A stretch of DNA of 20,000 bases from an uncultured virus (IMG/VR IMGVR_UViG_3300046171_000167). Lineage: Duplodnaviria > Heunggongvirae > Uroviricota > Caudoviricetes > Crassvirales. Below, in pieces: positions 1 through 18,577 of the stretch. Below the pieces are notes generated by a model, which saw only the letters and a program-made list of their open reading frames with translations, was not told the origin of the DNA and made no database searches. The stretch lies in the IMG/VR virus record IMGVR_UViG_3300046171_000167. One strand, written 5' to 3'. Every line of letters begins with the position of its first letter. The first letter of the stretch is position 1. A program made the translations under genes and the position numbers.

Positions 1-3000
1 TCGCAGGGTATAGATGTGGAGGCTAGAAAAAGATTTAAATTAGAGGAGGGGGAAGTACCTACTCTAGAGCAGCGAGCTACTGTAATGGAAGACGATAAGT
101 TTTTAGATAAACTTGAATCTAAAGCGGTCGCGGGAGGGTTTATAGCTGGACAGCTGGATAGATTTGGTGCCGGAAAAGTTTTAAAACCGTTTGCGGTGAA
201 TACAACTAAATCAATATTAAGAGGAGGTTATAAAAATTTCTTAAAAGGAGTAGCGAATGGTACTGTAAAAAACACACAAAGAGGTAGTATAGAAGCTATA
301 ACTGAAACCTTACAAGAAGTTATTCAGGCCGGAGCTAGCGGTGCGGATTTAAAGAAAGAGCAATTATTAGAAGCTGGAGCAACCGCTTTTATAACTACCG
401 CAACGTTTGGAATAGGAGGAAAAGTAGCTACGCAAACCGCGGCAGAAGCTAAGACTATTAGTAAAATTACAGCGGGTAAGCTTAATCCTAAAAGCTCAGA
501 GGCGTTTTTAAACAATAAAATAAAAGACTTACAATCAGCCTCTTGACAATGGTGAAATATCTAAAGAAGCTTTTCAAGAAAGTTTCGACGCAATAAACAG
601 CGTTAAAAAAGCAAACGCTTCTATTCCTAATAATTTTTCACAGCCTAGTAAAGAAAAAGCTTTAGATTTACTGATACAAAAGCAAGAGTTACTTAGCGAA
701 ATAGAAAACAAAGATTCTTCGCTCACCAAAGTAGAGAAGAGAAATGATTAATGAAATTAACACTGAGTTAGAATCATTAACTGTTCTTGAAAAAGCTGTA
801 AGCAAAAGACAAACACTTTTGGAAGCAGCTCAGAAAGCAGGCGTTGTAGAAGACTTATCTGTTCAATCTTTTGAAACAAAAGAAAAAATTGAAGAGTACA
901 TAAAACAACAAGGAAAAGGAAAAGCTCAAGCTAAGAGAAGCATGGGTCAATATGGTACTATATTTCAAAACAAAAAAACAGGTAGACAGGAAATACTTAT
1001 AAATAAAGAAATTGCTTTAGAGGATTCGGTAATAACAACAGCCTGACCACGAGTTTTTGCATGCTGTACTATACCAAACCTGTTAAAGGTAATAAACAAG
1101 CACAAATTAACTTAGGGCAGGCTTTATACACTGAATTAATAAAACAAACAGATGGAGCAGTACAAAACACACAGCTCGCCCAAAGATTAAATAACTATTT
1201 AGAAAAAGCTAAAAATCCCACACAACAAGCAAACGCATGGGAAGAAGCTCTAACCTTATTTGCAGAAGGCTTAGGCGACGGAACATTTAAAGCTGAACAG
1301 TCTTTTATAGAAAAAGTAAAACAATTCTTTAAAGATTTATTTGGAAAAGAAATTAATAAAGAAATACGATTTGATACAGGTGCTGATGTAGTTAAGTTTA
1401 TTCAAGACTATAACAAAAGCTTTGAAAAAGGTAAATGGGGTGAGGGTATTAAAAGACTCGCTAAAGAAGGAGCTAAAGGTAAATTAGTTGAGGGTAAGCC
1501 AGTAATGACAGAAGAAGAAGTCGCTAAAGAGTCGGCTAGATCGAATTTAGATGAACAGCTTAATAAAAAATACAAAGGCAATCCTAAGCAACTTATTGCT
1601 GGTATGCTTACATTTCCTTTAGCAAAATCTGAATTTGCTCAACAAATTGGAGGTATAACAAATAGAATAACGCAAAGATTATACGACCCGATACCTACAG
1701 ACCAAAAAAGAACAGTATCTAGGAATGATTTTATAGATGCATTGGTAAGTGAGGCCGCTACTATGGTGGACCGAGAATATAATGGTTTACAAAACCTAGA
1801 TAAATTTGTAAGCAATAGACTCAATTTAAGAGCTAATAATTTAGCTTCTAGACTTGGTATAGAAGAATCTATAAAAGCTGATGTAACGGAGCGTAAAGAT
1901 ATTGCAGGGAACTGAAACAGCAGAACAAACTGTTCAAAGGTCAGAAGAAGTTATAAAAGAAAAGCCAAAAGCCAAACCTTTTAAAGATGCTATTAAAAAT
2001 AAAGCTTTCGAGGAAAACCTTACAAGCACTTTAAATAAAAATATTGCTTTAAGCATAAGCAAGTACGATACGGAAATATCCAACAATAGGACTGTAACTC
2101 CTTTCGTACAGAATATTAAAAATGGATTAGCTCAAGATTTAGAAAAAGACGTTATTAAATTAATTAACGAATACGGGTTATGAGCAATTTTTAAAAGACT
2201 ACAAAGGTACTTTACTATTTAATTATACAACAACTTACTTAAGTAAAAATCCTTTATTTAAAAAAGGTATACTTAAAAGTGTTGGAGGGAAAATGGGTAA
2301 AGATAATCAAGGTAACAACCTATTTAAACCAAACTGGACAGCACCTACTAAATTAGCTAATAACAAATACGACTGGGTTGACGATAAAGGTAAGAAACTT
2401 AAAATAGACAGGGATAATGCTGGACAAAGAGGCTTAACTTCTGGGCCTATTATAATGAAACGTAATCCAAAGATTAACGATATAATTACCGAAGATGAGT
2501 TTTTAAACTTTCATTTTGATGATGGCCCTGTTAGAAAAAGAGTTAAAGTTAATGCTAGAAAAGCTATCGCTAGGCAGGTTGCCTCTGAAATGGGATTAGA
2601 AATATTCCAAGAAGACTTGCAAAATGAAGGTCCTTTATATGAATCTTTTAAAGAAAGAGCTGATATGTTAGGTAAAGCTATGGCCTGAAAATGCAGCTGT
2701 AGAGATTGCTAAAGACATAGACAGAGGGGACTGTAAAAGAATCTGCAAGATTTAATTTAAATGAGCAAATACAGTTACAGTTAGATAAAGGAATTGTAGA
2801 TGCTAATGGATTAATAAGCAATCAAACAGCAAGAGATATTTTTGACAAAGCAGGTAGAGTTCGGTCCCTAACAGCAAGAAGTTTAGTGAATACATCAATA
2901 ACATAGACGCTGATGATAATATAAAAACTATATTTCTTGATTCGGTTATTGGAGATAAAATATACTTAATACAAAGAGCTCAAAGAATTAAAGGGCGAAA

Positions 3001-6000
3001 CATGGGTGTTAAGTATGAAAAAGCTATAAATGAATTACTTAAAAATAAATTTGCTAAAGATATAAAAGTTAGTATACTAAAGCAAAGAAGAGGAGATTTA
3101 GCTTTTAATATAAACAATAATGAATTTGGTATAGAAATTAAGCTAAATGATCAGTCACAAGTAGGGTCTACCACTGTAAATAATATTTTAACAAACCCTT
3201 CTTTATTTAAAAACATACCTTCTTCTGAAATTATTTTAAACGAAATTAATAAGCAAAAGAAAATATTTAATTCATTTATTAATGTAGCTAAAAGTTTCGG
3301 GGCCACTATTAATGAAAAAGGTGCTTTAAAGCTAAAAAATAAAGAAGACTGGAAACTTATAAAACAAAAATGGGGTAAAGCTGTACCTAGAATAAGTTTT
3401 GAATTAGATCAAACCGCCTGCAATGGAACTTTACTCTAATGTAGAGGGCATACAAGTGCCATTTATTCACATTGGAGGTAAAGGCACTTTTGCTGTAGGA
3501 AAAAATAATATTTCCAACGGGGTAACACCTTTACAAGCGGACATGGACTACGTGGTTAGAATGGTACGAAGCAAAAACACGGTTAGCTTTAGAATGTTTC
3601 CTAACTTTAAACAAATAAACGTAGAGTCTAACTTTAATCTAGAAACAAAACAAGGCAGAGAGAACTTAATTAATATTATAAAAAATAATATTAACAAGTC
3701 TTACAACGATAATATACGTAATGCTAACGAAAATATTAGTAAGTTTAGCGAAAGAAAAGGCATAAGTGTTTGGGACTTTGATGATACCTTAGCTAGAACT
3801 AAAAGTAATGTATTGTATACAATGCCTGATGGTACCTAAGGGCAAAATAGACGCTAGTAGGTTTGCTTTAAAAGGCGAGGATTTAGCAGCACAAGGGGCT
3901 ATATTTGATTTTTCAGAATTTAAAAAAGTTATGAAGGGATCTAAAGGTCCTATGTTTGATAAAGCAATTAAAAGAAACGAAAAGTTTGGAAATGAAAATG
4001 TATTTATACTGACTGCCCGCCCTGCTGATTCTAAATATGCAATTCATGAATTCTTAAAAGGGTTAGGCTTAAATATTAAGCTAGAAAACATTGTAGGATT
4101 AGAAGACGGTGCCCCTCAAGCAAAAGCGGATTGGATAATAAGTAAAGTAGCTGAAGGCTATAATGATTTTTATTTTGCTGATGATGCATATAAAAACGTT
4201 GCGGCAGTGCAAGATGTATTGTCTATAGCGGACGTAAAATATGATGTACAGCAAGCAAAAGTTAAATTTAGCGAAAGACTTAGCGAAGACTTTAATGATA
4301 TTATAGAAGATCAGTTTGGTATTGAAAGTTATAAAAGATTTTCAGAAGTTGTTGGTAGAAGAAGAGGTTATAAAAAAGGCAAATGGAAATTATTTATACC
4401 GCCGCAAGCAGAAGATTTTCAAGGTTTACTTTATGATCTATTAGGCAAAGGTAAAAGAGGTGATATGCAAAAAGAATGGTTTGATCAATCTCTTATATTG
4501 CCATATATTCAAGGAGTAGCTAAATTAGAAAAAGCAAAACAAAGTATACAAAGAACGTATAAAAACTTTTTAAAGAACAATAAAGGCGTAGGTAAAAAGT
4601 TAAAACAAAAAATAGAAGATGGTGATTTTACATATGATCAAGCTTTAAGAGTATATTTATTTACAAAGGCAGAATATGAAATACCTGGTTTATCGCAAAG
4701 AGATCAAAAAAAATTAAACGAAATAGTACAAGCGGATGATCAATTAGTTAATTTAGCTTCGCAATTACAATCTATAAGCCAACAAGATGCGGGCTGGATA
4801 AAACCAGAACAATATTGGGACGGGGAAACATTATTAAGTGATTTAAGTAAATTAACAGAAGGGGTTAGTAGACAGCAATATTTATCTGAGTTTATAGAGA
4901 ACGTGGATATTATATTTTCAAAAGAAAATAAAAACAAATTAAGGGCGGCTTTAGGTAATCAGTGGGTAAATGCGGCTGAAAACGCTATAGCCAGAATGAA
5001 ATCAGGGGTGAATCACGTAGGTGGTTCAGATGCTATAACTAACGGATGGCTACAATGGGTTAACAACTCTGTAGGTAGTATAATGTTCTTTAACAGAAGA
5101 TCCGCTACATTACAGCTTTTATCTGCTACCAACTTTTTAAACTGGTCAGATAATAATCCAATGAAGGCGGCCGTCGCGTTCGGTAATCAGCCACAATATT
5201 GGAAAGACTGGTCTATGATATTTAATTCTGACAAATTAAGAGAGCGTAGAGGTGGTTTAAAAACAGATGTTACTGAATCTGAGATTGCAAATGCGGCAGA
5301 AGGAAGTAAGAATAAAGTTTCTTCTATTATAAGTTACTTACTTAAAAAAGGATTTTTACCTACGCAAATAGCCGATAGTATTGCTATTGCTTCAGGTGGG
5401 GCAGCATTTTATAGAAATAGAGTCAATACTTATCTAAAACAAGGATTAAGTAATAAAGAGGCTGAAGCAAAAGCTTTTGATGATTTTTCTAGAATATCTG
5501 ACGAAGCTCAGCAGTCATCTGATCCTTTGCTTGTATCACAAGAACAATCAACGACCGCAGGTAGATTAATATTAGCCTTTGCAAATACACCACAGCAGTA
5601 CATGCGTTTAAGCAAAAAAGCTTTTAGGGACTTAATAAATGGCAGAGGAGATGCTAAAACAAATATTAGTAAAATAGCTTACTATACTTTTGTACAAAAC
5701 TTAATATTTTCTACATTGCAGGCTGCTGGTTTTGCGTTAATACCTGGATTCGATGATGAAGACGAAGAGCTTGAAGATGCTAAAATAAAGCAAGAAAAAA
5801 CAGGTGTTATGGTTTTAAACAGCATGTCCGACACTGTACTAAGAGGTATGGGGCTATATGGCGCAGCTGCTTCGACCTATTAAAAACGTGGTATTAAAAT
5901 ATAAAGAAGAAAAAGCTAAAGATCCATTTAGACAAGATATGGATAAAGTAGTTTATGCAGCACTAAATTTATCACCACCTATTGGATCTAAAGCTGGTAA

Positions 6001-6445
6001 ATTAAAAAGCGCTATGAATACTGAAATATTTGAAAAAGATGTTTTAGCGGCAAGAGGGTTTAATTTAACTATAGACGGAAAGTTTGTACCTAATCCCGCA
6101 TATTCAGCTGTAGGTAAAGTTGCTGCAGCCGCGGCAAATATACCACTTGACAGAGCTTATGATGAAGTAGCTAGTATAACCGAAGCTTTGGATTCTAGAA
6201 ACACAGCATGGCAAAAATTAGCATTAGCTTTAGGTTATAAAACTTGGCAAGTAAACGCTAAGATAGAGGAACATGACTTAATCAAAGCGGCGGCTAAAGC
6301 AAATAGAAAATCACAAGGAAAATTAAAAGCAAAAGCAACAAGAGCTAGAAAGAAAAAAGAACAACAGGCTGCTGATAAAGAAAAAGTAAAAAATATGACT
6401 GTTGAAGAATTAATACAATTTAGAAAAGAGCAAAGAAAAAAATAA
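1..6445 (+). CDS. Giant multidomain (polyvalent-type, probably virion-associated) protein, 5'-truncated; broken into fragments by about 13 apparent +1 base insertions; reconstructed length >2,140 aa
   Basis: The frame is open from base 1. Each listed ORF (16, 744, 1061, 1902, 2293, 3002, 3423, 3808, 5858) and the 'intergenic' gaps join when one base is removed at about 539, 740, 1042, 1079, 1908, 2176, 2684, 2727, 2853, 2867, 3417, 3835 and 5876 (6445-13=6432 nt, 2144 codons). The 2853+2867 pair could alternatively be a single deletion. The joins restore motifs such as HEFLH and a continuous HAD domain. Confidence 0.85.
940..1350 (+). other. Zincin-like metallopeptidase domain within the giant protein
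   Basis: Corrected translation reads YGTIF...QEILINKEIALEDSVITTAD-HEFLH-AVLYQTV (HExxH at 1048-1062, in a frame missing from the ORF track). A downstream AW-EE-ALTLFAE (1241-1246) is the candidate third Zn ligand, followed by an amphipathic FIEKVKQFFKDLFG helix. Confidence 0.75.
3002..3740 (+). other. PD-(D/E)xK (restriction-endonuclease-fold) nuclease-like domain within the giant protein
   Basis: G-x-x-YE helix (MGVKYEKAI), then GD-LAF (D at 3095-3097) and GI-E-I-K (3134-3142): the canonical E...D...ExK arrangement. Confidence 0.6.
3756..4263 (+). other. HAD-superfamily phosphatase domain within the giant protein
   Basis: Motif I SVW-DFDDT-L (3774 onward), motif II FIL-TAR-P, motif III Lys (QAKADW) and motif IV FYFA-DD-AYKN. 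The domain is split by the frameshift at about 3835. Confidence 0.8.
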
Positions 6446-6462
6446 AGAATGTAAAAATATAT

Positions 6463-6471
6463 GTAATTATA
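6463..6471 (+). promoter_or_regulatory. Candidate phage promoter core GTAATTATA upstream of the lysis-like cassette
   Basis: Lies in the 58-bp gap before 6504. The same 9-mer occurs on the - strand at 17777-17785 in the gap upstream of the ERF gene. It is short and AT-rich, so support is weak. Confidence 0.3.
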
Positions 6472-6503
6472 ACATATATTACCCCACCTTATAAAAAATA
6501 AAT

Positions 6504-6788
6504 ATGGCTAACAAGATATCAGAAAACACTGAATTAACTTTAGATTTAAAAACACTTATAATAATAGTAAGCTTTGTCGTTACAGTTGCGGGAATGTGGT
6601 TCGCCATACAGGCAGATATTCAGTTAGCGAAAGAACTTCCGGAGCCTCCTGTAAGTAGAACTGAATACGATCTTAAAGATCAATTAATTCGAGAAACTAT
6701 AATGAATACACAATCAAAGGTGGAGGAAAATAGTGATAAGCTTGACAAAATAGATGAAAAGCTATATGAAATAATTGAAAAAAAATAA
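6504..6788 (+). CDS. Small membrane protein (one N-terminal TM helix plus coiled coil); holin/spanin-like candidate
   Basis: Hydrophobic LIIIVSFVVTVAGMWFAI segment, heptad-like C-terminus, two genes upstream of the M15 peptidase. Confidence 0.55.
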   Translation: MANKISENTELTLDLKTLIIIVSFVVTVAGMWFAIQADIQLAKELPEPPVSRTEYDLKDQLIRETIMNTQSKVEENSDKLDKIDEKLYEIIEKK

Positions 6789-6791
6789 GCC

Positions 6792-7133
6792 ATGAAAAAC
6801 ATTTTAACCGTAATATTTATATGTATAGCAAGCGTTGCTTTCTCTCAAGAATACACATTGCTAGAAATTAATTCCGAATGGAACTGGAGAAACTCAGCTA
6901 AAATAGACAAGGTTAAGGGGGTGAAACATAAAATAGCTTATTTAGAGCAGCAAACTAAAGATTTTCAAAGCAAAGTAAAATCAGTGCCTCTTGTTATATT
7001 ATATAAAGACAACCATGCTATAATGCAATGGTCCGCGGATATAAGTTTTAAGCTTGTTATAAAAGAGGAACAAATTAAAGAAGCAATAGAATCGTCAAAT
7101 AATCGTTTAACAAGAGCATCAACAAATGACTAA
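6792..7133 (+). CDS. Secreted protein with signal peptide; possibly a thioredoxin-like fold without CxxC
   Basis: MKNILTVIFICIASVAFS-Q is a Bacteroidota-style signal peptide ending before Gln. LLEINSEWN and VKSVPLVILYKD resemble the thioredoxin beta-strand/Trp and cis-Pro motifs. Confidence 0.5.
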   Translation: MKNILTVIFICIASVAFSQEYTLLEINSEWNWRNSAKIDKVKGVKHKIAYLEQQTKDFQSKVKSVPLVILYKDNHAIMQWSADISFKLVIKEEQIKEAIESSNNRLTRASTND

Positions 7134-7515
7134 AAATTTTAAATTATCTGAATTAGAGTGTAATTGCATATGTGAAAACCCGTGTACCATTCCGGATGAT
7201 GTTATGAATAATTTAAAAAAATTAGCGGAAAATTTGCAAGTTATAAGAAACACCATTGATAAGCCTATAAAAGTTACTAACGCTTATAGATGCCCTGAAA
7301 AAAATGCTTCCGTAGGTGGAGCGACAAAAAGTCAACACTTGCTAGGCAAAGCAGCGGACTTGCAAGTTAAAGATACATCACCAGATGAGGTTGCTGATAT
7401 TGTAGAATCTTTGCAAGAATCAGGAATTATAGAAATGGGTGGTGTCGGAAGATATAATACATTTACTCACGTAGATATTAGAGGATACACTGCGAGGTGG
7501 AATAATAAAAAATAA
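7126..7515 (+). CDS. Peptidase M15 family Zn peptidase (endolysin candidate)
   Basis: NF-x-LSE-x-x-C start, AYRCPEKN, SQHLLGKAAD (H-x6-D) and FTHVDIR motifs typical of M15A peptidases. Confidence 0.9.
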   Translation: MTKNFKLSELECNCICENPCTIPDDVMNNLKKLAENLQVIRNTIDKPIKVTNAYRCPEKNASVGGATKSQHLLGKAADLQVKDTSPDEVADIVESLQESGIIEMGGVGRYNTFTHVDIRGYTARWNNKK

Positions 7516-7516
7516 T

Positions 7517-7759
7517 ATGAAACCAATTACAAAAATAGTTAAAGAAAGAGCATCAAAAAAGATTTATTCGGATAGTATGGATATATCAATGAACGCTGAT
7601 GGAACTGGCGGTGTATTTAAGTCACCTATAAAAAAGAAAGACGCTTGCTACAGTAAAGTTAAAAGCAGATATAAAAAATGGCCATCAGCTTATGCTAGTG
7701 GCGCGTTAGTTAAATGTAGAAAGGTAGGTGCAGCTAATTGGGGAAATAAATCTAAATAA
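7517..7759 (+). CDS. Small basic phage protein (KKDACYxKVK...WPSAYASGALVKCRK type)
   Basis: Clean 80-aa ORF starting 1 nt after the upstream stop. The C-terminal half resembles a conserved phage hypothetical protein family (recalled, not searched). Confidence 0.7.
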   Translation: MKPITKIVKERASKKIYSDSMDISMNADGTGGVFKSPIKKKDACYSKVKSRYKKWPSAYASGALVKCRKVGAANWGNKSK

Positions 7760-7760
7760 T

Positions 7761-8033
7761 ATGGCAAAAAAAGGGATTGGCCCACAGGGGTTGGGAATAC
7801 TAGGTAATAACGGATATCACATAGGTTCTCCTGCTAAAAACTTAAAGAGGTGGTTTGAAGAAGAATGGAGAACACCTCGCGGTAATAAAGATTACAGTAA
7901 AGGGGAGAATACTTTTAGGCCTACTAAAAAAGTTTCTAAAGACACTCCAAAAACCTGGAACGAAGTTACACCCGCGTCAAAAGCAAAAGCACAAAAAGAA
8001 AAAAATACAAAAGGCAGAGTAACTAAATATTAA
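7761..8033 (+). CDS. Small basic phage protein (LKRWFxEEW...RPTKKVSKDTPKT type)
   Basis: The ATG at 7761 (MAKKGIG) follows the upstream TAA by 1 nt, the same spacing as the previous junction, so it is preferred over the 7728 start. Lys-rich, 90 aa. Confidence 0.7.
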   Translation: MAKKGIGPQGLGILGNNGYHIGSPAKNLKRWFEEEWRTPRGNKDYSKGENTFRPTKKVSKDTPKTWNEVTPASKAKAQKEKNTKGRVTKY

Positions 8034-8087: not shown

Positions 8088-8123
8088 TTTTTTATACACA
8101 TTGGTTATTATATGTATAAAAAA
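8088..8123. repeat. AT-rich inverted repeat downstream of nrdA
   Basis: TTTTTTATACA (8088-8098) pairs with TGTATAAAAAA (8113-8123) around a 14-nt loop. Confidence 0.55.
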
Positions 8124-13135: not shown

Positions 13136-13976
13136 TTAGTTACCAACACTCAACTCTGCTTTAATTGCAGGGTAAGGATTGTATTTAATTAATTGAATTT
13201 CATCTGCTTTAGGTATATATACTTTATTATTTAATTTACCTAATTCGGAATACATATATATTCCTTGGTCCAAATGTAAAAATGGTAATGCTCTTTTAGA
13301 CCTATCTAAATATATTTTAGCTTGATCAAAATGATTGTTATATAAATGACAATCACCTAATTGACCAATAAGCTTCCCAGCTTCTAATTTAGCACCTTTA
13401 GCCAGCATCTCTAATAGTAAACCATACATTACAATATCGTAAGGCAATCCTAAAAACACATCAGCTGATCTTTGCTGCCACATCAAATCTATAACACCGT
13501 TGTTAATATAAACTTGAAAAGCATAATGGCATGGGGGCAAAACCATATCATTCATTTCATGTGGAGCCCATGCACTAACTATAAGACGCCTAGAATTTGG
13601 ATTAGTACTTATGCTATGCACAAGCTTTTCGAGCTGATCTACGCCGTTAAAATCACGCCATTGTTTTCCATACACAGGGCCTAAAGTTTCGTCTGTTCTA
13701 CCTGAACGCTCATAATCTGGTCGCCAATACTTAACCCCATTGTCTTCAAGATATTTAAGATCAGTTCTACCATTTAATATCCAAAGCAACTCTGTGCGAG
13801 CCTGCATTAAAACTTATCTTCTTTCCTGTAAGTATAGGGAAGCCCAATGACATATCGTGCTTAATCGTTCTTCCGAAGACAGCTTTCGTCCCTGTGCCTG
13901 TTCTATCCTCCTTATCCAATCCTCCGTAGAGAATTCCTGCCATAAGTCCTTTGTATTCATTTTCTATATTTGTCAT
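13136..13976 (-). CDS. thyA: Thymidylate synthase (one apparent +1 insertion at 13801-13802)
   Basis: DRTGTGT...FPILTGKKISFN in one frame joins RTELLW...LGPVYGKQWR...SRR...LPPCH...QRSADVFLGLPYD...GDCHLYNNH in the next. Removing one base gives 279 aa (ISFNAARTELLW). Confidence 0.95.
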
Positions 13977-17824: not shown

Positions 17825-18577
17825 TTAAAGGTAATCAAGCACTTGCGTAGGGTCTACGTTGTCAATAAGCTTGTCTATTGCTGCTCTCTTTATTTGTGAA
17901 ACCCTAACATAGTTTGCTATACCCTCTAGCTTTAATTGTTCCGCTATATCCTTTGCTGAGTGTTTATCACAATCCAACCCGTAGGATAATCTTATTACTT
18001 CATATTCTTTTTCATTAAGGTGTGTTTTCATTAACCCTAGTAAATAAGCATTAAGTAAATTAATATTGTAAGGCTCAGAGTTGTCGGGTATTTGAAAAAG
18101 ATTATTCTCATCATTCTCTATCATTTCATCAGTACTTTTAAATATACTGTTAAAAAACATTTCAACTATCTTTCTATCTTTACCTTCGTTTTTTCTAATC
18201 TCTATTAACTTATGCTCGGGTATTTTTATATCACCTCTATTAATATCTATAGCTCTTCGTATTGCCCCCTTAATTCTTTTACTAAAGAAACTTTTTAATG
18301 TTTTTTCTATATCTTCTGAGTCAACTAACTTATCCCAGTCTAATCTGTCTACTGCCATTGTAAGACCTAAGCTACCTTCTTGTATAAAGTCAGCAATAGT
18401 TAAAACACCGGAAGCTTGTTGTGAAGTAGAAAACTTTCTCGCTATTGTTTCGACTAGCGGTAAAAATTTAACGATCAACTCATCTCTAGAATAGTAATCG
18501 TAGAATTTGTTATCAGGCATGGATTTTTTTATATCTTCCTTATACCTAATATAGTTTTGTATGTTATATTTTTTCAT
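17825..18577 (-). CDS. Phage-encoded RNA polymerase sigma-70-family factor
   Basis: Region 2: LPLVETIARKF...DFIQEGSLGL-x-x-AVDR...RIKGAIRRAI. Region 4: LNEKEYEVIRLSYGL...AKDIAEQL...RVSQIK. Confidence 0.88.
   Translation of the reverse strand: MKKYNIQNYIRYKEDIKKSMPDNKFYDYYSRDELIVKFLPLVETIARKFSTSQQASGVLTIADFIQEGSLGLTMAVDRLDWDKLVDSEDIEKTLKSFFSKRIKGAIRRAIDINRGDIKIPEHKLIEIRKNEGKDRKIVEMFFNSIFKSTDEMIENDENNLFQIPDNSEPYNINLLNAYLLGLMKTHLNEKEYEVIRLSYGLDCDKHSAKDIAEQLKLEGIANYVRVSQIKRAAIDKLIDNVDPTQVLDYL

Follow-up and report, generated by a model that had tools for sequence, protein, structure and literature searches.

The question raised by this locus is whether the first 6,445 nucleotides of a 20,000-nucleotide stretch from an uncultured Crassvirales virus (IMG/VR record IMGVR_UViG_3300046171_000167; the whole stretch is called the window, and coordinates refer to it unless said otherwise) encode one giant protein, and what the short repeated peptides between its modules are for. 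A first-pass annotation had proposed a hidden polyprotein of more than 2,140 amino acids (aa), in which a zincin protease and several enzyme modules are separated by K-x-S-[AE]-R linkers serving as cleavage sites. We find a single giant gene whose product carries intact zinc ligands and a K-x-S peptide at the joints between its modules, several of which are exchanged among relatives. The explanation that we favor, at slightly less than even probability, is that the protein is packaged, ejected and cut at K-x-S by its own zincin, freeing transcription-directing and nucleic-acid-processing modules. That some cutting takes place at the motif is rather probable when all readings are taken together.

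The window holds the 3' part of the gene (1-6445, plus strand; about 2,143 codons of a protein of about 2,575 aa), which is split into nine short open reading frames (ORFs) in the ORF list and contains 13 single-base sequencing insertions. The 5' end lies about 433 codons upstream, and the N-terminal residues were supplied by record G001, which is 99% identical over positions 1-3051 and in which a single frame stays open for 1,446 aa, up to the contig end. All 10 gaps in the alignment with G001 are extra bases on the window side, located in short homopolymers. Contigs of four runs from four studies, aligned to positions 1-6600, likewise lacked the additional bases near 3417, 3837 and 5876 (each case observed in 1 to 3 runs), and a single run provided two contigs, one aligned at 1181-4157 with eight gaps and the other at 4159-6600 with one gap. 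The separate in-frame pieces of the protein add up to 2,574 aa with zero stops. The proposal of one giant gene after frame repair is therefore borne out, because the breaks are extra bases missing from independent assemblies (G001 and the four runs); the product is indeed giant, but longer than the window reveals. The HEFLH motif was found at 1048 within a short frame-1 island, and the four peptides KESARSNLDEQL (1526), KESARFNLNEQI (2736), KFSERKG (3741) and KFSERLS (4264) are present as annotated. The thymidylate synthase gene at 13136-13976 (minus strand) is interrupted near 13800 by a change of frame that most likely is a further sequencing error; that it is split in the same way as the giant gene would fit long-read error.

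The joints are marked by KESAR at junctions 1 and 2 (J1, 1526-1540; J2, 2736-2750) and by KFSER at junctions 3 and 4 (J3, 3741-3755; J4, 4264-4278), all on the plus strand. The exact form K-x-S-[AE]-R, a motif picked after the fact, occurs four times in the giant protein compared with 0.09 times in shuffled sequences, none of 5,000 shuffles reaching four. Relatives were obtained by three IMG/VR scans, which gave 161 loci including G001 and were reduced to 90 representatives, and by a profile search that added 98 non-redundant proteins of at least 1,400 aa from the 150 matches listed, resulting in 188 sequences. The exact form is present anywhere in 17 of these 188 proteins, mostly away from junctions, and was rejected as a family-wide signal. 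Junction segments of 40 residues were set by domain profiles that exclude the motif, and the looser [KR]-x-S was counted in them and in 500 shuffles of the same segments. It was found at J1 in 61 of 80, at J2 in 67 of 74 and at J4 in 65 of 85 segments, each count lying above all shuffles, and in the larger set at J2 in 138 and at J4 in 123 of 150. The expectation that the linkers persist at boundaries while modules vary thus holds for the [KR]-x-S core at J1, J2 and J4, but not for the exact motif. From these counts, KESAR and KFSER are best read as the lineage-specific version of a family-wide [KR]-x-S core.

The pattern is sharpest at J2, where K is kept in 166 of 170 sequences (98%) and S in 158 of 170 (93%). 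Past the serine, the share of the most frequent residue drops to 0.35, 0.31, 0.22 and 0.13, so that K and S are the last conserved residues and conservation among relatives stops right after the serine. KESARSNLDEQL and KESARFNLNEQI are alike across 12 residues. Shared residues at the junctions use identical codons in 285 of 561 cases, compared with 279 +/- 11 from codon usage, and the two KESAR copies are different at most synonymous sites. Given that codon sharing does not exceed usage, selection appears to act on the peptide and not on the DNA, and a DNA-level recombination site was rejected for want of an excess of identical codons.

Judged by profiles and structural models, the module order is N-terminal domain, zincin, sigma-2-like module plus a domain termed M2b, PD-(D/E)xK nuclease, Pnkp-like HAD phosphatase and helical C-terminus. 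The window begins within the N-terminal domain, the C-terminal part of which (1-836, plus strand, as are all modules below) consists of Gly/Ala-rich, mildly hydrophobic helices homologous to the N-termini of syntenic giant virion proteins in cultured phages. The putative zincin-like metallopeptidase domain (837-1468) has HEFLH at 1048-1062 and a downstream Glu at 1244-1246. H, E, H and this Glu are invariant in 70 of 70 aligned sequences, rows that had been selected for HExxH; exactly one HExxH was found in 89 of the 90 representatives, and in the larger set HExxH occurs in 144 of the 145 proteins with the region present. A model of G001 residues 700-1400 (model 1; 70-row alignment, mean predicted local distance difference test score, pLDDT, 79.5) resolves a zincin-like domain at model residues 1-222 and a sigma domain-2-like bundle at 258-362. 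Seven of 50 fold matches cover the former, all of them zincin-like by title (Z 5.4-8.0; the best with a root-mean-square deviation, rmsd, of 4.7 over 175 aligned residues). The metallopeptidase assignment of the first-pass annotation is upheld by these ligands and folds.

The single "module 2" of about 400 aa that had been placed between the first two junctions is the region between J1 and J2, but it comprises two domains, the first of which is the sigma-2-like module missed at first reading. Of the 50 fold matches to this putative sigma-70 domain-2-like four-helix module (1574-1888), about 29 are sigma factors by title, the best with Z 7.9 and an rmsd of 3.2 over 86 aligned residues. The Pfam family Sigma70_r2 was recognized in 5 of 74 members, at E 5.6e-4 for the best, and sigma factors made up 9 of 15 rows in a PDB profile search (E 0.05-2). 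As each of these signals is sub-threshold, with Z 7.9 under the caution line of the tool, the call depends on the agreement of fold, Pfam and PDB. Sigma70_r4 (domain 4) had no match in the modules scanned, M2b being barely tested by fold, and an hhalign comparison of the sigma-2 alignment with the sigma factor encoded elsewhere in the window gave a probability of 0.6% and no support. M2b (1953-2732) is a conserved, confidently modeled domain ending in R-G-x-x just before J2. Neither M2b nor the N-terminal domain nor the C-terminal region could be given a family or a fold, all three being barely tested by fold, and Foldseek returned nothing at E<=0.001 for both whole models against PDB and BFVD.

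The next two modules occupy variable slots. Slot 3 (2751-3740) holds a PD-(D/E)xK nuclease-like module with E..D..E-x-K at about 3017, 3095, 3134 and 3140; these four residues are invariant in 11 of 11 aligned sequences, the 10 relatives having been chosen by the same pattern. The module was modeled at low confidence, Pfam gave no match for it, and the Atlas lead was R-HINP1I (score 0.93, on 14% of a cluster). In 40 of 69 relatives the slot contains an E-H-x-x-P module instead, for which the family search gave no match and which may be HNH-type. Slot 4 (3756-4250) carries a predicted HAD phosphatase with DFDDT at 3774, 11 residues downstream of J3. In a model built on the homologue L134 (model 2), its fold is nearest to Pnkp 3'-phosphatases (4xrp, Z 10.9, rmsd 2.4, 122 aligned; T4 Pnkp 5uj0, Z 10.7; 1ltq, Z 10.2). 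The C-terminal region (4279-6445) is conserved (48-60% identity among relatives) and all-helical, with no Pfam or NCBIfam family above the cut-off. The order of nuclease, HAD phosphatase and helical C-terminal region agrees with that given at first reading.

The exchange of modules at the motif is best seen in slot 4, which among the 90 representatives contains a HAD domain in 55, a P-loop kinase in 8, neither in 22 and is cut off in 5; Pfam assigns the kinase to the AAA_33/Zeta type and finds a ninth, in L052, among 57 scanned. A phosphatase and a kinase are the two halves of Pnkp. In L034 both halves are present, the kinase being nested inside the HAD domain, and an end-healing role of the slot-4 enzymes may be inferred from the models. 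Where the kinase replaces the HAD domain, it is flanked by the motif at either end in 7 of the 8 cases, as read by eye. Another module, unnamed and about 190 aa long, begins at an F-S-L junction; in some relatives this junction follows the zincin (J1), in others the HAD domain (J4). Derived motifs are also repeated at two to four joints of a protein, namely KRS in L002, L063 and L071, KK[FY]R in L159 and L161, KSLGL in P0128 and ASI in P0083. ART-like modules or a P-loop kinase are nested at the HAD cap position, instead of standing between junctions, in L005, L007, L034, L069, L117 and L155, with a weak ART-PolyVal match in the insert of one relative (E 0.003).

As to the location of the protein, the gene order in G001 is terminase, portal, an acidic 405-aa protein, capsid, tail genes, a 210-aa gene, a 375-aa gene and the giant gene, which is the last of the virion block. 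The capsid of G001 matched 85 GenBank records, with 37-48% identity to Elemovirus, Maribacter phage Panino, Cellulophaga Calle_1 and phi38:1 and 23% to phi18:3 types, and the capsid-matching phages have a giant gene in the same position. The N-terminal domain profile matches elemoE gp18 (E 4e-56), phi38:1 gp101 (7e-43), phi18:3 gp123 (1e-38) and Panino CDS0069 (8e-16). By synteny and homology, the giant gene is thus the last, ejection-type gene in the virion block of a Pervagoviridae/Elemovirus-related phage. Three-gene sets of this kind encode the ejection proteins of podophages such as T7 and P22. N4 likewise has a three-gene set of ejection proteins (PMC13434306). Because the homologous phi18:3 gp123, together with the two genes before it, is annotated from virion tandem mass spectrometry, the giant protein is probably carried in the phage particle. 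Its profile for the sigma-2 module plus M2b retrieved 334 proteins at E<=0.001 among 1.84 billion. The C-terminal part and the G001 protein, compared by tblastn with 50,697 GenBank phage records, gave no match. The phage is common in seawater, most of the stretch being contained in 20 of the 24 runs listed (13 studies). The median cysteine count of the 188 giant proteins is zero, as would be expected of a chain crossing the periplasm unfolded. The relative G005 encodes GroEL and GroES (L169 5726-7527; Pfam Cpn60 E 2e-55, Cpn10 E 2e-11), possibly for the folding of giant virion proteins. In the locus L107, a tail gene lying upstream of those for ejection proteins matches the crassvirus muzzle C-terminal domain (718-2268; PF25729, E 2e-8).

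We hypothesize that, among the internal (ejection) proteins of a marine Flavobacteriaceae podophage, the giant protein is the third one and also the largest, and that, in view of its position and orthologues, it would be made late, packaged in the head and delivered to the host cell along with the DNA. Its two terminal regions would form a conserved scaffold with exchangeable cargo slots between them, the presumed cargo being the sigma-2-like module, which may dock to RNA polymerase, a nuclease and an enzyme healing nucleic-acid ends (a 3'-phosphatase or a kinase). The K-x-S at each joint would be a recognition site at the protein level, most likely a cut site from which the cargo is released once the protein has been unfolded or delivered. 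The zincin of the same chain would be the likeliest protease, recognizing K-x-S loosely and favoring certain residues at the middle and following positions. Consistent with this, J1 lies inside a segment with pLDDT<50 of model 1 (232-250) and J2 in another (642-654), i.e. in low-confidence linkers.

Several observations weigh against this explanation. The objection that linkers might fall inside folded domains finds no support in the models at J1 and J2, but it would apply to J4, which is placed within a confident predicted helix (504-528, pLDDT about 68-93) of the homologue-based model 2; J3 is non-canonical in the homologue used. J3 is also the weakest junction, its 31 of 56 segments with [KR]-x-S not exceeding the shuffle maximum of 32. 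The giant protein contains 21 copies of [KR]-x-S compared with 21.9 by chance, so that context must supply specificity, the core being too short to specify a cut alone. The inserts nested in HAD domains (ART-like, kinase) lack an evident motif, the orthologues of phi38:1, phi18:3 and Panino are without HExxH, and the N4 virion RNA polymerase, which has such a domain, is described as packaged unprocessed (PMC5512222). The co-variation of junctions points in the right direction and is not significant once trees are taken into account: J4 is aromatic in 65 of 80 proteins when J2 is aromatic and in 10 of 36 when it is not, and tree-controlled counts gave 3.8 same-way against 0.1 in 8 pairs (p 0.125) for the first set and 8.0 against 1.7 of 20 (p 0.07) and 5.0 against 1.4 of 17 (p 0.29) for the larger one. 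A plain permutation yields z 3.6-11.3, which ignores kinship and is not counted as proof. Proteins with KRS at both junctions carry zincins of several clades, and the motif changes 14 and 19 times on the zincin tree, 14 and 18 times on the M2b tree and 13 and 18 times on the C-terminal tree. A tracking of the zincin by the motif was thus not found, the fit to the zincin tree, which is weak for this short divergent domain, being no better than that to the trees of neighboring domains.

Unlikely, yet the most serious alternative, is that the protein stays uncut, K-x-S being a short binding, handling or modification tag and the zincin acting on a host target. The tag might serve packaging, refolding after ejection or docking to the scaffold, and the protein might remain one membrane-tethered chain like N4 gp50, which has an HExxH domain and is modeled as anchored through a linker (PMC13434306, PMC5512222). 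The helical J4 fits this alternative, as does a zincin that has diverged far more (median end branch 0.55) than the C-terminal region (0.14) and is not tracked by the motif. However, a three-residue tag exactly at the ends of homology and flanking swapped enzymes has the look of cut sites, and no candidate binding partner was identified.

We consider doubtful the far-reaching version of our own explanation, in which a true self-cleaving polyprotein is injected and its zincin cuts K-x-S before any phage gene is transcribed, freeing the sigma-2 module to grip the host RNA polymerase, the nuclease and one half of Pnkp. If true, a tailed DNA phage would possess a polyprotein in the style of eukaryotic viruses with a cut code drifting between lineages, and its virion would bring in a sigma domain instead of a polymerase.

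It is improbable that the junctions are cut by another protease, either a host enzyme or an unrecognized phage protein. In favor of such a protease, proteins with the KRS state group together on the C-terminal (lineage) tree but are scattered over several zincin clades, and L085, the only relative without a zincin, retains the sigma-2 module and a K-A-S about 28 residues before the C-terminal region. On the other hand, the zinc ligands are invariant as described, and L085 has no motif at the place of J2, where its sister L073 (62% identity to L085 in the C-terminal region), which kept the zincin, has V-F-S (by eye, one case). With the motif missing at J2 and K-A-S present before the C-terminal region, L085 is ambiguous for cutting by the zincin. 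A dedicated head protease was not apparent either: in G001 no protease gene lies between portal and capsid, and there was no Pfam peptidase among the 69 ORFs of the complete relative G005, which speaks weakly against another phage protease, as most of these ORFs have no annotation and the set leaves out ORFs <75 aa as well as a stretch of about 31-34 kb next to the giant gene.

Very improbable, and already weakened, is the view that the motif is a by-product of module shuffling, arising from DNA microhomology or duplicated domain ends and devoid of protein function. The similarity of KESARSNLDEQL to KESARFNLNEQI and the duplication of the HAD end by some insertions would agree with it, but codon usage at the junctions and the synonymous differences between the KESAR copies do not, and neither does the retention of K and S at J2 while the next residues are free. 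Finally, that the fragments are separate genes or a decaying gene, as the nine short ORFs and a frame broken upstream of or within the C-terminal region in 3 of the 161 loci (L043, L066, L081) might suggest, has practically no probability and is refuted for the sampled population, since independent contigs lack every break and all of the first 19 relatives have the protein in a single ORF (2,344-3,370 aa), which in three cases is cut short by the contig edge.

Downstream of the giant gene, small membrane-type ORFs and two DUF5872-like ORFs lie at 6504-8033 (plus strand), and a Peptidase M15 endolysin was identified at 7126-7515 (E 1e-23). A strand switch coincides with a GC-skew reversal near 8,100. 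A free-standing sigma-70-type factor is encoded at 17825-18577 (minus strand; Pfam regions 2 and 4, E 3e-4 and 2e-4) and also in G005; as it has both regions, the phage would possess a second, complete sigma factor beside the virion-borne sigma-2 module.

The sigma-2-like cargo, which was not expected, points to a way of seizing host transcription as infection begins, with no polymerase in the virion, while nuclease and end-healing enzyme point to an early conflict over nucleic acids. The hundreds of natural variants retrieved by profile include lineages with shifted motifs suited to specificity swaps and one lineage without the protease; L085 and L073 form a natural pair in which a loss of the motif may be compared with that of the zincin.

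The concept of a cut protein is known, as autoproteolysis was proposed for phage-type polyvalent proteins with a zincin-like metallopeptidase by Iyer, Burroughs, Anand, de Souza and Aravind in 2017 (PMC5512222), whereas neither the junction motif nor a virion-delivered sigma domain was found in print in the literature covered, which did not extend to subscription journals. The main text of the 2017 paper has 0 occurrences of "sigma", "linker" and "phosphatase", and that part of the paper names no cut motif; the available portions of PMC7077304 and PMC13288928 hold nothing on these giant proteins. Like polyvalent proteins, the giant protein is a large chain of disparate enzymes among virion genes and has a metallopeptidase with HExxH and downstream Glu (PMC5512222), but no LPD family reached the cut-off in it. 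By the testable features, i.e. one chain, disparate domains and a place adjoining late or virion genes, it is a phage-type polyvalent protein.

The giant ejection-type proteins of Pervagoviridae, Pachyviridae and Elemovirus (phi38:1 gp101, phi18:3 gp123, elemoE gp18 and Panino CDS0069) share gene position and N-terminal domain with it, and elemoE gp18 (3,694 aa) also has the zincin (E about 1e-12). The sigma-2, M2b and C-terminal profiles had no match in these four orthologues at the cut-off used, and three of them lack HExxH. R-x-Q is present at three apparent joints of elemoE (by eye). Such joints were seen in two distant zincin-bearing orthologues, L164 18852-29936 (Elemovirus gp18; SRFQA, TRQQK, VRMQK) and L166 741-12320 (FRATQ), and R-x-Q may possibly represent a different cut code in a cultured phage. 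No cultured phage has the exact architecture described here, for which the support comes from sequences and models. The HAD fold is nearest to the 3'-phosphatase of T4 Pnkp and bacterial Pnkp1; unlike in Pnkp, the slot in this virion protein is usually filled by either one half or the other, and no ligase module was found.

Parallels are also offered by giant ejection proteins with an HExxH or metallopeptidase domain. phi24B gp47 is one of them (bioRxiv 10.64898/2026.04.10.717836), for which cleavage is not reported in the available part of the preprint, and N4 gp50, with its HExxH domain, is the third gene of its ejection set (PMC13434306). The C-terminal half of the zincin has a weak Pfam likeness to N4_RNAP_helical (E 0.007), but in contrast to N4 gp50 the giant protein bears a sigma-2-like module and no polymerase. 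For the self-processing predicted in 2017 (PMC5512222), this family offers four exact, testable sites per protein.

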